Source of the DNA: a virus
Taxonomy: Duplodnaviria; Caudoviricetes
Reading direction: 5' to 3' (one strand)
DNA length: 64,000 nucleotides
IMG/VR virus record: IMGVR_UViG_3300021256_000087
Span: 19,477 to 83,476 of that record
Part shown: positions 3,345-56,130 of the stretch, in pieces
Position numbering within the stretch: the stretch's first letter is position 1
How the letters are laid out: every line of letters begins with the position of its first letter
Notes under the pieces: generated by a model
Seen by the model: only the letters and a program-made list of their open reading frames with translations
Databases searched by the model: none
Told to the model about the DNA's origin: nothing
Made by a program: the position numbers and the translations under genes

Positions 3345-5504
3345 TTAATCACCTCCTATCGCTTGTAAGAAATCATCATGAGTACTATTAAGATGTAGCC
3401 GATATCCATAAGGTTCTGCTTTAGTATATATGTGTGAAAATTTCCATCCTTGCTCTTCAACGCTGATAGCATTTGTATAAATATCTATGATACATCCCTC
3501 ATTCGCACCTCCATAAAACATGGTATTATCATATCCAATGGGATTGTATAATGTATTAGGAATATAAGCTATTTTATTGACGCTAGTGCTTGAATATTCG
3601 CTTATTAACATACAGTTTGTTATATCGTCTCTCGATCTAGGTATAACCCATCCGTCGAAGTCAACTGATCCCGCGAATCCAGATATTCCATATATATAAG
3701 TCACATTGGATAAATCCCAATTTCTTATATCAAGATTCCCGTTTAAAGAACTAGCGATGCCATTTATTCTAGTAAGATTATCAGTATCCAAATTACTAAG
3801 GTTAAAATTTCCTGTGCAATTTTGCAATAAATACGAAATACTTTGGAGTTGACCAACGTTCCAATTACTTAAATCATAAGACCCATATGTGCTATAAAAT
3901 AAATATTCCATTTCTTGAACATCTGATACATCGATTTTGTCTAAGTTATATAAGACCGGAGAATGGCCACTGTATCCATAACAAAAATAACTCATTTTGT
4001 TCGAAAATTTTATTCCCGTATTGGGGAAATATATCGCTCCAAGAGAACATCCGTATCCCATGAATCCATAAGAATATGTACAGACACCATCAACAACCAA
4101 TCCTCTCATATCTAAATACGTATCGTTCCAATCGGATCCATAATATGTACAATATATAAAATTGTTTAATCTGCCAGAATTTCCCATATGCAACACTGAA
4201 TTCTCAAACGTTATCTGAACAGGATAAGAACCAGATATAAAATTAGAAAAATCGCTAGCGTAAATCGTACTGTTTTTAATTAGATATGATGTCGTGCCAA
4301 GATCAGAAGCTTGAGGGGATATAAAATATCCTAAGCGATTTACTGCTGTGGGAAATGTTAACTCCAAAATATGATTAATTGCTTTATCATAATATGTCAA
4401 TCCAAATTGGCTGTAACTCGTAATATTTGGAGATAAAGAAGTTTTTAAATGCATTTCAGGAGTTTGGCATCCATAAAAGGGGTAATGACTATATGAAGTT
4501 TCTCCTGAGAAATCTAATGTAGAAAAATCAGTTTCTCCTAAAACAGTATTATAAAACATGTTATCTCCGTTCGAGATAATAACATCTTCAAAACAAGACA
4601 AATCCAATCCACTATCCGGCATTTTTATATATGCAAACATATAAGAAGTATCTAAGCCCGATGATTCCATTTTCATATTATCAAAGACAAAATTAGGTTC
4701 AATATCGTTATTCATCCATTGATAAAACATATACGATGCATTTACAATAGATGGAAATACGCAATCGGATAAATCAATTGTTACTTGCACCGATTCATTT
4801 GAAAGGGGGCCCGCCGAATTATTGAACATACCATACGCATTTTGCAGCAATGTAAAAGATACTCCTGATAAATCTATGGTAGGAATACTGCTTGAATAAA
4901 ACATTTGTGCCGCATTTACAACATTCGAAAAATCTAATGTATTTAATCCTGTGACAATAGGAATGCGAGCAGAATTAAACATATTACTTACATCTGTGAT
5001 AGTTGAAATATCAAACCCAGTTAAATCTAACGATGGGAGAGAAGCATTGTAAAACATGCCCGCAAGGCTTGTTAAATTTGACACGTCCAATGTAGCCAAT
5101 CTAAGACCTTGGACTATATTCGCCCCATTAAACATATTTGCCGGAAGACTATAGAATTGGGCTCCTGTAAAATCAACCGAGTTAAATGTTCCGCTCAATA
5201 AATTTATCGCTGTAGTTTGAGCACCAATAACTAATCCATCAAGAGACAAATCTCCTCCGGTAACATTTTGGAACATATAATTCATATTAGTTACAGATTC
5301 ACTATTTATTTCACTTAGATCAAAATCATAGGCCTTAGAATAACTAAATAAATAACTCCAGTCTTCGGCGTTATCCATCGTGGAGAAATCTGTATTTTTT
5401 ATAAATTCTTCTTCCCACCTATCACCTCTTTCTCCTATTTCAAGGCCATATTGTGGAATAAGACTTTTTCTTTCAATAGGAGGGCGTATATAAATAACTC
5501 CCAT
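3345..5504 (-). CDS. BspA/DUF285-type repeat protein (719 aa), putative virion adhesin or receptor-binding protein
   Basis: Repeats such as LDVSNLTSLAGMFYNA, FDISTITDVSNMFNSA, IDVSDVQEMEYLFY, WDLSNVT; lies at the distal end of the tail module. Confidence 0.75.
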   Translation of the reverse strand: MGVIYIRPPIERKSLIPQYGLEIGERGDRWEEEFIKNTDFSTMDNAEDWSYLFSYSKAYDFDLSEINSESVTNMNYMFQNVTGGDLSLDGLVIGAQTTAINLLSGTFNSVDFTGAQFYSLPANMFNGANIVQGLRLATLDVSNLTSLAGMFYNASLPSLDLTGFDISTITDVSNMFNSARIPIVTGLNTLDFSNVVNAAQMFYSSSIPTIDLSGVSFTLLQNAYGMFNNSAGPLSNESVQVTIDLSDCVFPSIVNASYMFYQWMNNDIEPNFVFDNMKMESSGLDTSYMFAYIKMPDSGLDLSCFEDVIISNGDNMFYNTVLGETDFSTLDFSGETSYSHYPFYGCQTPEMHLKTSLSPNITSYSQFGLTYYDKAINHILELTFPTAVNRLGYFISPQASDLGTTSYLIKNSTIYASDFSNFISGSYPVQITFENSVLHMGNSGRLNNFIYCTYYGSDWNDTYLDMRGLVVDGVCTYSYGFMGYGCSLGAIYFPNTGIKFSNKMSYFCYGYSGHSPVLYNLDKIDVSDVQEMEYLFYSTYGSYDLSNWNVGQLQSISYLLQNCTGNFNLSNLDTDNLTRINGIASSLNGNLDIRNWDLSNVTYIYGISGFAGSVDFDGWVIPRSRDDITNCMLISEYSSTSVNKIAYIPNTLYNPIGYDNTMFYGGANEGCIIDIYTNAISVEEQGWKFSHIYTKAEPYGYRLHLNSTHDDFLQAIGGD

Positions 5505-28597: not shown

Positions 28598-28921
28598 TTA
28601 ACTATTATGATAAGCGGTGTTAATAATTGAATCTTTTACCATAACCTCTGCAATATCAGATTTAACTACTACCTCTTTAGCTTCAGGGCCATCAACACCT
28701 ATTAACTGCACCTGAACGACGCCAGTCTTAAATTTAAGAGTATCTTCTTGCCTTAATGTAACTACTGCAATATTTACTGAATTTATAAATGGTTCCACAT
28801 CCACAAAAAATGATCCTTGCTTAAATCTAAAGAAAAGAGTAGATCCTAAGTCTGAATACTTAATTCCATTTGAAAGTTGAATTGTAAATATAGGAGTAGT
28901 GCCTCTTATAAAATCCGCCAT
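28598..28921 (-). CDS. BppU N-terminal-like (RGTTP family) virion protein
   Basis: MADFIRGTTP...VTLRQEDTLKF...VQVQL; paralogue of 51143-51448. Confidence 0.55.
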   Translation of the reverse strand: MADFIRGTTPIFTIQLSNGIKYSDLGSTLFFRFKQGSFFVDVEPFINSVNIAVVTLRQEDTLKFKTGVVQVQLIGVDGPEAKEVVVKSDIAEVMVKDSIINTAYHNS

Positions 28922-51520: not shown

Positions 51521-53290
51521 TTATTTAAGTATTGAACTTTTTCTCATTGAAGAACTAAGCATGTCAAGTATAGATTTAGTCGCCTCAACATTTTTCTTTT
51601 TTGCGTCTCGACCAATTTCCTGTGCTACATAATACGAATATTCCAAACTAGAGAATCTATCCTTACGCATGCCGGTTTGTTCTTTAAGTTTAATCTTTCC
51701 GTCAACTACTTTGCTTTCGAGATTGATTATCTCGTTAACAAACATGCTCGTCTGCGCATAAGGCATAAGCAGTTCAGCTTGTTCGTTGGGAGAAAGAGAA
51801 GAGTACCACGACTTCTTCTTAAGCACTTCTTCAGCATCATATTCATTTATTAGCAAGGACACGTTGCCAGTTTGTATTCCGGCCCTGAGCATAGTTGCAG
51901 CATCAGAGTTGAATTGTGCGTACGCCTTGATAGTCCACACACATTTAAGTGCTGACTTATCATGACATCTCTCAGCCATCAGCGGATCATTGCAACTCGT
52001 CATGGCTGGATATGTTTCACCGGTCTCAGCATCGAACTGAGGTTGTGCAATATAGTCGAACACGCTAAGGCCCACGCCGTTTGTATCAAGCACAAGGTCT
52101 GTGCACTTATACTTGTTGAAATAGCGCATTATTGTTATGCCAAGTTCATTCGTGGTCTTACCTTCAAATGTTTGTAAAAATACAAAATGAGAAGAGTAGC
52201 CATTGTCCGTTGGCGTGGCTACATTTAGCCACACTGCAGATGCGTCGTTATTATGTCCTTTACTCGCCATGAGCGCAACGTCTACAGAAAGTATTCGACG
52301 TTCATCGGGCGCCAGATCGGGAACATTAATACCACGCTTATCGTACATATGAAGAGGATAGAACGCATTCTTTATAACGCGCCTATCACTCACATCATCA
52401 AACGAAAAGAAAGCATCCTCGGCTTCACCGTAGAAGAGTGCTTCACGTTCCATCAAGAAATTGATAGGATTAAAGTCTGCTTCGGCCATTTCATCTTCAA
52501 TAGCGTCTTTAGAATATATTCCATCTTTAACTCCCACCTGATATGGTAATCCACAGCAGAAATATCTTTTGCTATCATCAAGCATAAGACTGGCATCTGA
52601 TTTACATTTATCAAACACCCAAGAACTTTTATAAAAAGCTGATGTCATATATATTTCTGTATTTCTTTCTTGATACTTTGGATTATCCCTGTACTCAGGA
52701 AGATTTAAATAGGGAGGCTGCCTTAATGAAGTAAGGAATGGCCTCAATATACTTTGTACTATTTTACGATCAACAAGTCTCGACTCATCCACGATAAGAA
52801 TTGTGGCACGGTTACCACGAGCATTTTCACTAGCGGTAACACACTTAATCCATGATCCATTCTTAAATAAGACCATAGGATTATTAATTGATGTACTTAT
52901 CTTTTCAATTTCATTTTGTAAATTAAAACTTCCCCATCCATGTCCTTTAAGGAAGTCCGTATCTATCTTACCTATTATTTCCGTTGCCTGTGACCGCACG
53001 CCGGAAGCTATACACACTTTTGTGCCGGGGTACAAGATACATCTGATAACACAATAAAGCGCTACCAGATAGGTCTTACCTAAGCCACGGCTCGCGATAA
53101 ATGACATCACTGTCATTAAGTTCATCACATACAACAGTATTTTCTGAAACAGTTTAAGTTGAATATTTAGGTAGTCAGCTGCGAAACGATGAGGATTCGC
53201 GCGCCAAAACGCCGTCCAAATGCCAACACCTTCCATCAACTTATCCGTCTTTTCCTGTTGTACTTGAGAAAAGGTTTTATGATTATTCAT
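51521..53290 (-). CDS. terL: terminase large subunit
   Basis: Walker A ASRGLGKT, Walker B LIVDESR, nuclease ILSVDVA, C-terminal KDRFSSL; 589 aa. Confidence 0.92.
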   Translation of the reverse strand: MNNHKTFSQVQQEKTDKLMEGVGIWTAFWRANPHRFAADYLNIQLKLFQKILLYVMNLMTVMSFIASRGLGKTYLVALYCVIRCILYPGTKVCIASGVRSQATEIIGKIDTDFLKGHGWGSFNLQNEIEKISTSINNPMVLFKNGSWIKCVTASENARGNRATILIVDESRLVDRKIVQSILRPFLTSLRQPPYLNLPEYRDNPKYQERNTEIYMTSAFYKSSWVFDKCKSDASLMLDDSKRYFCCGLPYQVGVKDGIYSKDAIEDEMAEADFNPINFLMEREALFYGEAEDAFFSFDDVSDRRVIKNAFYPLHMYDKRGINVPDLAPDERRILSVDVALMASKGHNNDASAVWLNVATPTDNGYSSHFVFLQTFEGKTTNELGITIMRYFNKYKCTDLVLDTNGVGLSVFDYIAQPQFDAETGETYPAMTSCNDPLMAERCHDKSALKCVWTIKAYAQFNSDAATMLRAGIQTGNVSLLINEYDAEEVLKKKSWYSSLSPNEQAELLMPYAQTSMFVNEIINLESKVVDGKIKLKEQTGMRKDRFSSLEYSYYVAQEIGRDAKKKNVEATKSILDMLSSSMRKSSILK

Positions 53291-54362
53291 CTAATATACC
53301 GCCAAATACTTTAGCAAATATATCTTCTGAATCCTCATCTCCAGTAAACTCAGGTCGCTTCGCAGAATATTGTTGCATATAATCATTATACATCTTGGCA
53401 TATTTATTCTTAATGCCAAGCATCTTGCATAAATGGCCCAAGAAGAATACACTTATATACGTCCCAATTTTGTCAACGTCAGCAAGTTCGGGATCTATAT
53501 CGGGAGCCGGACGAGTCTCTTCCATTTTTTGAATAAGTTGTCCAAATGATTCAATACCATTTGTAAGATCAGTCTTATTCTGTTTAGGCGTAATGTTTCC
53601 GGTTTCCATAAGTTTCTGCAGTGTAGTAGTTAGTTTATCCGTCTGCTCGCCATTGAGTCTCGCCTTATGTAATTCAAGCTGTGTAAAAGCTATATTCTTA
53701 AACACTTCCTCCTGAGCTTTAGTATTGCATTCATACTTATCACACCAATCCGAATATTCCTTTTCGAGAAAATTAAGATCAGGCAATGAGTATTCAGTGC
53801 CGAAATGTTCTTTTGCCAATTTAAAAAATTCGGAGTTTTCGTCGAACGTTTCCTCTACGGGGCGTTGTTCGTAACTTCCGAATTTACTATCTTTCCATTT
53901 CTTACCTTTATACTGAGGTAAGCTTTGTATGTTAGTTATATAGACCGCAAAGATCGACGACCAATTCTTTTTAGTTTTAACGTCATACTTTTGATCTGCC
54001 ATGCCAGTACATAACTTTGTATATAATGCATCGTCATATGGCTTATCCATCAACTCAAGAACTTTCATAATACTTTCCCTTGTTTCATTTGGCGGATCAG
54101 ATTCCCTTTTTCTTTGTGCTGCAATCATCTGAATACATTCCTTACATATGGGAAAGTATCCAGCCTTAAAACGATCATCTCTGTAGAACCCAGTATGCTG
54201 ACCGGTATTTCGTTTCCACTGATCGCACTTAGGGCAATACATAATATCGCAGTCAAGCATCTTATTATAGGTGTCAGCGAACTTACTATAAATTCTACGC
54301 ATATCGGCGACACCAAGTTTAGATTCCTCGCCAAGAGGCGCGGGTTGTAAATTCGTTGCCAT
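53283..54362 (-). CDS. putative terminase small subunit / DNA-packaging protein with Cys motifs
   Basis: Overlaps the terL start; CPKC...CKEC; start moved to the ATG with AAGGA RBS. Confidence 0.5.
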   Translation of the reverse strand: MATNLQPAPLGEESKLGVADMRRIYSKFADTYNKMLDCDIMYCPKCDQWKRNTGQHTGFYRDDRFKAGYFPICKECIQMIAAQRKRESDPPNETRESIMKVLELMDKPYDDALYTKLCTGMADQKYDVKTKKNWSSIFAVYITNIQSLPQYKGKKWKDSKFGSYEQRPVEETFDENSEFFKLAKEHFGTEYSLPDLNFLEKEYSDWCDKYECNTKAQEEVFKNIAFTQLELHKARLNGEQTDKLTTTLQKLMETGNITPKQNKTDLTNGIESFGQLIQKMEETRPAPDIDPELADVDKIGTYISVFFLGHLCKMLGIKNKYAKMYNDYMQQYSAKRPEFTGDEDSEDIFAKVFGGILDE

Positions 54363-54388: not shown

Positions 54389-54415
54389 GAAAAATGGCGG
54401 GGAATTCTCCCCGCC
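54389..54415 (-). terminator. intrinsic terminator just upstream of the packaging genes
   Basis: GGCGGGGA-GAAT-TCCCCGCC-ATTTTTCT. Confidence 0.7.
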
Positions 54416-54582
54416 TACCAATACTCACATTGACTCGGCAAGGGATATACGTCTACCCTAACGTTTAGGTTATAATTGTTTAGCCTTTTCACTCCACGCC
54501 AATGTAATAATTTGAGCCCGAGATTTTATATACCGCATCTCGGGTAGCGGTAAACATTTGGTGCAATGCCCTATAGGCACTG

Positions 54583-54650
54583 TAGTGGAGCCCAGAGGAA
54601 TCGAACCTCCATTAAGATACGCACTAATTGCGTCCACAGCCATCGGCCCC
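54583..54650 (-). ncRNA. tRNA-like RNA lacking a D-stem, resembling the tRNA-like domain of tmRNA / tRNA-Ala
   Basis: GGGGCCG...GGAGG-TTCGATT-CCTCT-GGGCTCC-A-CTA: acceptor stem with G3.U70, discriminator A, canonical T arm, and a central ACGCA-ATTAG-TGCGT hairpin. Confidence 0.65.
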
Positions 54651-54827
54651 AAAAAAACAAAAGACGTCACAATATAACAGCTATCTTTATCGCCCCTCGC
54701 TTTGTTTATGGTGGAGGTTCGCCAATCTTTATTTGACGTCTTCGAAGGCTCCTCCTACACATGGTAGATGAGTTAAAATTTTGCGCCCCCTCCACCGCTA
54801 GGACAGCAGTGAAAGGAACGCACGCGG

Positions 54828-54990
54828 AAGGAATCAATTGAAAGTAACGGGACGGAGAGACCTAATGTCTCTCTCATCCACGATAAAAACGAAACCTTGA
54901 ATTAAACCCCTGAATTAATGGTTTCAGGAACCAAAGGAATTAATTAAAAGTAACGGGATGGAGAGATCTAATACCTCCCTCATCCACGAC
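54828..54990 (-). repeat. tandem 57-bp imperfect repeat (54828-54884 and 54934-54990) forming a conserved hairpin
   Basis: 8 mismatches, all transitions; those in the stem preserve pairing. Confidence 0.85.
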
Positions 54991-56130
54991 TAAAACCATT
55001 TGTTCGGGAGCTCCAACTATACGTTTTGACATCGTATAATCGTCGCCGGTGCCGCATAAACTTCCGCTGCGGATCACCTTTACATTGCTAATATTTTGAA
55101 AAGAGTTATTATGGAGATGTCCCATAATGACTGCTTCCGGAATGTGCCCAATCATAAACACGAGCTTAGCTACACTAGACTGATCAGCCCCGTCCCAGTC
55201 CCCATGTACGATTAAGTATTCCTTATCTCGTACTATTACACTTCCAATACTGGGATCATAATTAAACTCGTCAATAAAAATTATATTTGTCAGATGTTCA
55301 AGTTTTGCCTTGCAATACCAAGGAACTATCGAGTCGAGTCGCTCATCTCGCAGAACATTTTCCTTGAGTCCAATGCGGGAATGATTTCCTCCTACGTTAT
55401 TAATAAACACGTTTTCAAAATGTTTACTAAGTTCATACAGAAAATCCGATACGAGCTCTGATGCTTTCACAACTTGCTCAATAACATTTTCTCTGTTCTG
55501 TAGTTGTACCGTAGGGTGGATGTTTCCTGATACTAAATCTCCGAGGAGTAGGACGTAAGCGTCCCTCGAAGCATTGCTCTTTTGGATCTTCAGAATATTT
55601 CCGAGATACTCGTCCAGTCTTTCCTTTGCAATGGTACTATTATACTTACCGCCCCATGAGTCCACATCTTCTCCGATATGAAGATCTGATAAACAGATAA
55701 TCATATCCGTATCCCCATTAGTCGTTTTTATCACAGAAGGTTTATACTTCAGCTTTCCAGCTTCGGCAATTTCCCGTCTTAAAATATCCAGATTTTCCTC
55801 GCATCTTGCTTCATCTCTTTTAATCTTAACAAGCGCTGCGCGCTCATCGAAAAGCTTCTGCTTCTCTTTGCGAATGTCATATATTCTACTGTCACCGCAT
55901 GTCACGGGACGCTTACTATCCATATATTTCTTTACCGCATAACCTCCAAATAAGGTGCCATTGGCTTTCCTAAGAACATCGGAAGCATAGGGTATATTGT
56001 ACTTTTCTTTTATTTCATCCCACTCCATATCGAGGTTTCCTTCAAGTTTGTCGTATATATCAGACAGACAACTCTCATAATCCTCGACGGACATGTTTAT
56101 CTTTTCTAATTCTTTTTCTATATTTTCCAT
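54940..56130 (-). CDS. calcineurin-like metallophosphoesterase (SPbeta YonJ-like)
   Basis: LSDLHIG, LLGDLVSG, GGNHSR, IVHGD, MGHLH motifs. Confidence 0.85.
   Translation of the reverse strand: MENIEKELEKINMSVEDYESCLSDIYDKLEGNLDMEWDEIKEKYNIPYASDVLRKANGTLFGGYAVKKYMDSKRPVTCGDSRIYDIRKEKQKLFDERAALVKIKRDEARCEENLDILRREIAEAGKLKYKPSVIKTTNGDTDMIICLSDLHIGEDVDSWGGKYNSTIAKERLDEYLGNILKIQKSNASRDAYVLLLGDLVSGNIHPTVQLQNRENVIEQVVKASELVSDFLYELSKHFENVFINNVGGNHSRIGLKENVLRDERLDSIVPWYCKAKLEHLTNIIFIDEFNYDPSIGSVIVRDKEYLIVHGDWDGADQSSVAKLVFMIGHIPEAVIMGHLHNNSFQNISNVKVIRSGSLCGTGDDYTMSKRIVGAPEQMVLVVDEGGIRSLHPVTFN

Follow-up and report, generated by a model that had tools for sequence, protein, structure and literature searches.

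A D-armless, anticodon-less tRNA-like RNA at a fixed place among the late genes of rumen SPbeta-like phages, possibly a processing signal

Why should a phage keep, between an exonuclease gene and its packaging genes, a tRNA-like element that has neither a D arm nor an anticodon? The element, here called W, lies on an 83-kb IMG/VR phage record in which all genes are on the minus strand, and it occupies part of the roughly 545-nt gap from the exonuclease gene to a YonG-like gene (Table 1); the window referred to throughout is the 64,000-nt stretch of this record that was analysed. Among deposited proteins, those of SPbeta-type Bacillus phages are closest to the YonG-like protein, and the gene order of the phage matches the SPbeta-type order, yonJ ... 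yonG-yonF(terminase)-yonE(portal). Judged by these genes, this rumen phage is SPbeta-like. A megablast search against deposited phages returned no close DNA relatives. The true tRNA genes of the phage are clustered far off, outside the window.

Table 1. Coordinates of the tRNA-like element, its parts and its neighbours in the window, and of intact copies on related contigs
Feature	Position	Strand	Acceptor 5'/3' strands	Discriminator	Pair 3:70	Remarks
tRNA-like element W	54586..54650	(-)	GGGGCCG / GGGCUCC	A	G.U	Position 1 = 54650, discriminator = 54586; direct reading, RNAfold, covariation, own covariance models R1 and R2
W acceptor 5' strand	54644-54650	(-)
W D-replacement loop	54634-54643	(-)				10 unpaired nt
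W central hairpin	54619-54633	(-)				5 bp, AUUAG loop
W linker	54611-54618	(-)				8 nt
W T arm	54594-54610	(-)				5 bp, canonical loop UUCGAUU
W acceptor 3' strand	54587-54593	(-)
W 3' trailer	54583..54585	(-)				CUA, CCA not encoded; direct reading
YonJ-like exonuclease gene (upstream)	54940..56130	(-)				phrog_284 and SPbeta gene order
Upstream hairpin	54783..54821	(-)				39 nt; 17 bp, GUCCU loop, several U.G pairs; covariation
Inserted structured domain, hairpin to element	54651..54782	(-)				About 120 nt; 9-bp closing helix 54734-54742/54661-54669
Downstream hairpin	54565..54581	(-)				Begins 4 nt after the discriminator; the same one follows the element in L067 and L004
Intrinsic-terminator-like hairpin and U run	54396..54415	(-)				Separates the RNA region from the next gene; conserved in L004, L025 and L067
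YonG-like gene (downstream)	53283..54362	(-)				Real start ATG at 54362
Terminase large subunit gene, after the YonG-like gene	51521-53290	(-)
Element in L067 (contig binned with a rumen Lachnospiraceae MAG)	L067:3090-3155		GGGGCUG / UAGCUCC	A	G.U
Element in L025	L025:5233-5301		GGGGCUG / UAGCCCU	A	G-C
Element in L039	L039:3740-3805		GGUGUGU / CCACACC	U	U-A
Element in L050	L050:6484-6540		GGUACUA / CAGUACC	A	U-A
Element in L004	L004:4216-4292		GGCAACG / UAUUGCC	G	C-G	T loop degenerate

Read directly, W is a 65-nt unit with six acceptor pairs (G1-C, G2-C, G3.U, G4-C, C5-G and C6-G) followed by a G7xG66 mismatch, with no D stem and, where the anticodon arm would be, a hairpin of 5 bp. The minimum free energy structure given by RNAfold is exactly the three-way fold read by eye, and in all these respects it agrees with the fold drawn in the initial annotation. 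The T arm, which had been called perfect, does have five pairs and a canonical loop, but its outermost pair is G.U, so that the adjective is slightly generous. Two absences that had been claimed are also there: CUA, not CCA, follows the discriminator A, and the 33 nt that separate the acceptor 5' strand from the T arm hold no mRNA-like domain. The missing CCA is no defect, since the phage's own tRNAs and the tmRNA of the candidate host likewise do without an encoded CCA. Decoding is impossible, because the central hairpin loops, of 4–6 nt, cannot be an anticodon loop.

The folding energy of W is unremarkable against shuffled sequences (RNAfold, z = -0.85), so stability by itself is no proof of a real RNA. 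What lifts the element beyond chance is that relatives keep it in the same position in the genome, with covarying pairs. These were gathered independently of the element, either through the neighbouring exonuclease and YonG-like proteins or with a degenerate pattern for the upstream hairpin, which was run on collections of viral, metagenome and genome sequences. In all lineages recovered a tRNA-like element occupies the corresponding place, and five lineages besides W are intact (Table 1). Only six independent copies are available. In an alignment of five lineages (A6), standard pairs fill 94.9% of the cells that belong to the 12 pairs of the acceptor and T stem, as compared with 44–56% in a slid control in which the 3' partners were moved by 1–3 columns. 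Seven of the 12 pairs in A6 have changed on both sides, and none of 500 shuffles reaches the observed covariation score; an alignment that includes a broken copy gives the same covariation picture. W is a real structured RNA: D-armless, anticodon-less and tRNA-like.

The pattern of conservation is uneven. The 7+5 stack and the T loop, GGUUCRAnUCC, are constant in the family, as are two parts of the D region, GGC at positions 10–12 and GG before the central hairpin; a GG start is found in five of the six intact copies, and the 7:66 pair is never Watson–Crick. The acceptor sequence (including 3:70), the discriminator and the central hairpin are variable, and the core remains similar among copies while the acceptor stem diverges fast. 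Beyond the stems, the junctions GGCU.U.GG and AUC.UUAA are conserved among W, L067 and L039; neither they nor the central hairpin are conserved in L025, L050 and L004. The family is a structural RNA selected for the geometry of the top half of a tRNA.

Is it, then, a tRNA-Ala- or tmRNA-like RNA, as the initial annotation had it? The acceptor of W carries the full alanine signature (G1-C72, G2-C71, G3.U70, G4-C69 and A73), which L067 shares and which is enough for AlaRS to charge a minihelix. The succession of acceptor, unpaired D region, short helix and T arm is, moreover, the architecture of the tRNA-like domain of tmRNA, and tmRNA is the best Rfam match of W. An element of this kind would be charged by AlaRS and would bind SmpB or EF-Tu, freeing stalled ribosomes without tagging, or it would titrate SmpB or AlaRS. 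Against this, G3.U70, which is invariant in tmRNA and tRNA-Ala, occurs in only two of the six intact lineages, the pair being G-C, U-A (in two lineages) or C-G elsewhere. The proposed resemblance of the D region to the GG...GAC loop of tmRNA likewise holds for W and its closest copies and not for the others.

ARAGORN at default settings calls no tRNA or tmRNA at W, and Rfam at gathering scores gives no match there, Rfam 15 being without a matching family; with permissive thresholds, the Rfam tmRNA model (RF00023) matches exactly 54583-54650, at 18.3 bits against a cut-off of 47. Its alignment uses the acceptor and T arm only, with everything between deleted, and by this model an ordinary tRNA-Met encoded by the phage reaches 17.9 bits. 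In three related complete phage genomes RF00023 does not match the homologues of the element, and what it matches there are only the T arms of normal tRNAs. The score of W reflects generic tRNA features together with its GGGG...CUCCA ends, since the tRNA-Met scores alike and the homologues are missed. The model of the mitochondrial domain-only tmRNA (RF02544) matches none of the four copies in the genomes G000–G003 at E<=10, nor does the tRNA model RF00005 at E<=0.01, in a search that finds 6–18 true tRNAs per genome. W has no messenger-like domain, tag frame or pseudoknots, the four phage genomes contain no gene for SmpB or for a CCA-adding enzyme, so that SmpB would have to come from the host, and the tmRNA of the candidate host differs from W in acceptor stem and D loop. 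By these comparisons the element is not a tmRNA, and the family is not under selection for alanine identity. We consider an alanine-accepting function very improbable, also in the narrower form in which the W/L067 lineage only would have turned the element into an anticodon-less mini-tRNA, a copy of the tRNA-like domain of tmRNA that would be charged after CCA addition and would then either target SmpB, EF-Tu or stalled ribosomes or tie up AlaRS. Other synthetases might, in that case, be engaged by the sister lineages, whose acceptor stems differ.

Some further candidates in the region were tried and rejected. ARAGORN at an 80% threshold returned 30 calls, mostly spurious and with a permuted tmRNA over the region among them, which were judged to be noise. 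A second tmRNA match at 54709-54790 (5.9 bits), considered as a messenger domain, is a helix of the inserted domain, and an 18-codon frame in the insert is, by direct reading, conserved neither in L067 nor in the first module of L043. An alternative 5' partner at 54746-54752, which pairs 7/7 with the 3' acceptor strand, is expected by chance in about 1 in 8 tries and is not kept in L043.

Three related contigs, L043, L045 and L047, bring in another explanation. Their first 50 nt are nearly identical to those of W, divergence sets in halfway through the T loop, and the 3' acceptor strand is lost, so that the acceptor stem can no longer form. The element is dispensable in this lineage, since that strand is lost there. 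It could accordingly be asked whether the whole family is a remnant of a phage tRNA gene, perhaps tRNA-Ala, decaying without function in a recombination-prone spacer. The breakpoint inside the T loop, the degenerate T loop of L004, the shuffling of intergenic spacer modules between relatives, the tRNA-Ala-like 5' strand GGGGCYG kept in several copies and the rarity of the element, which was not found in 150 other genomes of the candidate host family, all point that way. In a neutral copy, however, 12 pairs would not survive seven double-sided changes; nor would such a copy be expected to hold its place in six lineages, with the T loop and the length of the stack retained, when the identity of the flanking proteins among them is only 71–81%. 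The decay in relatives that the initial annotation had named as telling against a functional RNA is thus found in one lineage and is contradicted by compensatory changes in five others. A functionless remnant seems to us distinctly unlikely.

The position just upstream of the YonG-like and terminase genes might also suggest a site that acts as DNA, either a pac or cos signal near the terminase gene or an att site taken over from a tRNA or tmRNA gene of the host, the more so as integrases often target T-loop regions. But G.U pairs together with compensatory changes point to RNA of one particular strand, the element sits inside the phage gene order and not at a prophage end, the 3' half of W has no exact match in 185,579 species genomes (GTDB), and the end of the candidate host's tmRNA differs. 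A DNA-level site is, on this evidence, extremely improbable.

The 17-bp hairpin upstream is single-copy in the genome and conserved in all relatives, directly after the exonuclease gene; all of its 85 aligned cells are paired (100%), and five pairs have changed on both sides. Several of its pairs are U.G, so that only RNA of the sense strand can fold in this way. With no consistent U tract after it, the hairpin is no standard terminator; it may be an RNase III site or a protector of a 3' end. In L025, L039 and L050 the element begins 5–8 nt after this hairpin; this leaves no room for a promoter, from which we infer co-transcription with the gene upstream. A sigma-70 scan found no promoter in the intergenic gap of the window.

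In W, L043 and L067, a structured domain is inserted between the hairpin and the element, and its terminal U run (54651-54662) abuts position 1 of the element; the insert is absent from L025, L039 and L050. It is partly duplicated in L043, and the 3' strand of the 17-bp hairpin is an alternative pairing partner for the 5' part of the insert, an arrangement that could be a switch.

On the other side, the element trailers of the relatives begin CU or UU. L039 and L050 have unrelated hairpins 2–4 nt past the discriminator, so that five lineages in all have a stable hairpin there; L025 has no such hairpin, and its terminator comes straight after the element. An intrinsic-terminator-like hairpin ends the RNA region in most lineages. 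Other repeated or relocated structures were seen in the same spacers. A conserved module of about 80 nt, UUGGCGUGGAGU ... GCCGAGUCAAU, stands after the element in the window (54430-54505, minus strand) and before it in L004 (L004:~4128-4210), and it belongs to no Rfam family. At 54866 and 54972 (minus strand) there are two hairpins of 12 bp, each with an AUUAG loop and a bulged A, one inside the 3' end of the exonuclease gene and the other a non-coding duplicate; the central hairpin of the element has the same AUUAG loop and a similar 5' flank (UGG.UG.G).

What could a phage gain from such an arrangement? We tentatively propose, with a probability of roughly 45%, that the element is a mimic of the top half of a tRNA, lying in the late operon and excised by the RNase P and RNase Z of the host. 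The late genes of SPbeta, among them the exonuclease, yonG and terminase genes, form one operon that is read by YonO, an RNA polymerase of the phage (PMC5467207). The mimic, that is, the acceptor/T-arm stack with its T loop, would be embedded in a correspondingly long late transcript; it would retain the features that RNase P, RNase Z and the CCA-adding enzyme recognise and would have dropped those needed for decoding and for specific charging. RNase P would cut at the 5' end of the element and RNase Z after the discriminator, as for the t-elements of plant mitochondria, which have the same T-loop motif and where cuts by these two enzymes make mRNA ends (PMC1920247). The cuts would split the message into an exonuclease part and a packaging-gene part; the 17-bp hairpin would cap the new 3' end of the upstream RNA, and the second hairpin would shield the 5' end newly made on the downstream RNA. 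As for the 65-mer that is cut out, it would be a disposable by-product. A GG start and a weak acceptor stem mark tRNA-like RNAs for CCACCA tagging and decay (PMC4307339), and such a fate fits with the GG start in five of six copies and with a 7:66 pair that is never Watson–Crick.

We favour this processing signal because the features that are constant are only those of processing, because the element has no promoter of its own and stands among co-directional late genes, and because hairpins would cap the resulting fragments. We also count in its favour that most lineages have these hairpins close by the element, and that those downstream are not homologous from one lineage to another. The route through RNase Z and the CCA-adding enzyme is the usual one there, since neither the tmRNA of the candidate host nor the phage tRNAs have an encoded CCA. 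On the other hand, only four of the six copies have the U at -1 preferred by RNase P, a terminator-like helix with a U run stands directly before W, an intrinsic terminator follows the region, and the loss of the 3' acceptor strand in the L043/L045/L047 lineage also counts against a processing signal. Passage of the polymerase through the region of W is assumed from SPbeta.

The conserved junctions GGCU.U.GG and AUC.UUAA go beyond the known needs of the processing enzymes, and a specific partner could account for them. This raises the alternative that the 65-mer is itself the product, a stable tRNA-shaped small RNA that acts in trans. As a sponge or decoy, it could occupy a host factor that recognises the elbow or the acceptor end of a tRNA, for example a nucleotidyltransferase, a modification enzyme or a defence toxin directed at tRNAs; or it could be a partner of the other ornate RNAs at the locus. 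Conservation of unpaired junctions in W, L067 and L039, and a core that stays similar while the acceptor stem diverges, would be expected of such an RNA. The locus is, moreover, an RNA island, with a ROOL RNA about 180 nt downstream of the element in L004 (ROOL and GOLLD are typically near phage tRNAs), and the RtcB gene beside the tRNA island of one relative hints at a tRNA-directed attack by the host. The bait for tRNA-targeting defences that the initial annotation imagined could not, however, attract anticodon nucleases, as there is no anticodon loop. The GG start and weak 7:66 pair predict instability, one lineage has lost the element, L025, L050 and L004 conserve neither the central hairpin nor the junctions, and no partner gene co-occurs with it. 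We regard a trans-acting 65-mer as plausible, though less likely than a processing signal.

Several other RNAs and genes were found in passing. The ROOL RNA of L004 (IMGVR_UViG_3300028797_001406) is full-length, at L004:4474-5081 (RF03087, 224 bits, cut-off 99); it shares the intergenic region of the element and stands just before the YonG-like gene, and the window has no ROOL. The phage tRNA island outside the window holds a Pistol ribozyme match (G000:C1:1292-1362; 37.8 bits, cut-off 34.5) and a tRNA-shaped gene with a perfect 7-bp acceptor stem and T arm and an insert of about 115 nt between them (G000:C1:1664-1832). In the same island, a near-threshold drum RNA match (G000:C1:1980-2084; 41.1 bits versus 43) lies directly upstream of an odd tRNA, G000:C1:2086-2169, which passes the tRNA model at 49 bits and whose anticodon arm ARAGORN cannot read (tRNA-???). 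The RtcB RNA ligase is encoded in a relative of L025 (G001:C1:24760-25863), as a two-piece match in one open frame that adjoins an island of 18 tRNAs, and is absent from the other three phage genomes. Upstream of the exonuclease gene, L025 has a group I intron match over the cut-off (L025:1963-2259, 58.5 bits) and L050 a weak one (L050:3195-3431, 20 bits). Finally, SPbeta itself (L066, NC_001884) has a DUF3800-VIII RNA at L066:1898-1963 (47.5 bits, cut-off 40.2), in a gap that bears no annotation and immediately precedes yonK. PMC5467207 mentions an unannotated non-coding RNA where the late operon read by YonO begins, and the two may be the same.

Thus far, the family is seen only in a small clade of rumen SPbeta-like phages, comprising seven contig lineages. 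It is not in Bacillus phage SPbeta, and the more distant exonuclease loci L005–L038 gave only ordinary tRNAs at low scores. A second protein-based scan for relatives added no lineage, and an exact 26-nt pattern had no match in viral contigs. Within the window, our model R1 also has a weak match at 28611-28699 (minus strand; 15.1 bits, E ~0.8). No database annotates the family, and tRNA finders and Rfam miss such elements. Phage tRNA genes are usually read as helpers in codon usage or as replacements for tRNAs cut by defence systems; here a phage keeps only the part of a tRNA that processing and CCA-adding enzymes recognise, at a fixed place in its late operon and beside ornate RNAs. Should the element be a processing signal, “tRNA punctuation” of the organellar type would also organise the long late transcripts of YonO-type polymerases, and the defined ends of large phage RNAs such as ROOL would be explained. 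In any case the family is a small, testable set of substrates with natural acceptor-stem variants, two of them with the alanine signature.

The kind of RNA is already known from organelles, from mammalian long non-coding RNAs and from a few phage RNAs. Bacterial Y RNAs of the YrlA type resemble the element in having a tRNA-mimicking module that is read by tRNA enzymes, and they occur in some phages; they differ in a Ro-binding helix formed from their two ends and in travelling with Rsr. No Rfam Y-RNA model matches at the element, and no TROVE gene is present in the four phage genomes (G000–G003). Among phage RNAs, the stable RNAs C and D of T4 (species 1 and 2) and the C4 antisense RNA of P1 and P7 have tRNA-like ends, are matured by the host tRNA machinery and do not decode; C4 is matured by RNase P and has a known antisense target. 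Their sizes, sequences and contexts are other than those of the element, for which no antisense target was found. The tRNA-like domain of tmRNA and the domain-only tmRNAs of jakobid mitochondria share with W the acceptor and T arm, the missing D stem, a helix in place of the anticodon arm, G3.U70 and A73, whereas the phage family has no conserved G3.U70, no messenger-like domain and no pseudoknots, and RF00023 and RF02544 fail on it. In mascRNA and the MEN-beta tRNA-like RNA (MALAT1 and NEAT1), a tRNA-like fold that ends a long transcript is the signal for RNase P and RNase Z, and copies that start with GG and have a weak acceptor stem receive CCACCA and are degraded; these RNAs are eukaryotic and nuclear, cloverleaf-like, and keep an analogue of the anticodon arm.

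Of the t-elements, those of wheat were reportedly treated by Hanic-Joyce et al. in 1990. Plant-mitochondrial t-elements have, like the phage family, a non-canonical tRNA-like fold with an acceptor and a T arm and the motif GGTTCRANYCC; they lie within long transcripts, have no decoding role, and let RNase P and RNase Z make mRNA ends (Forner et al. 2007, PMC1920247). The t-elements are organellar and their cleavage has been shown, whereas the phage family is viral and its cleavage is what we infer. The phage elements further differ from them in having a defined central hairpin and hairpins that flank them closely.
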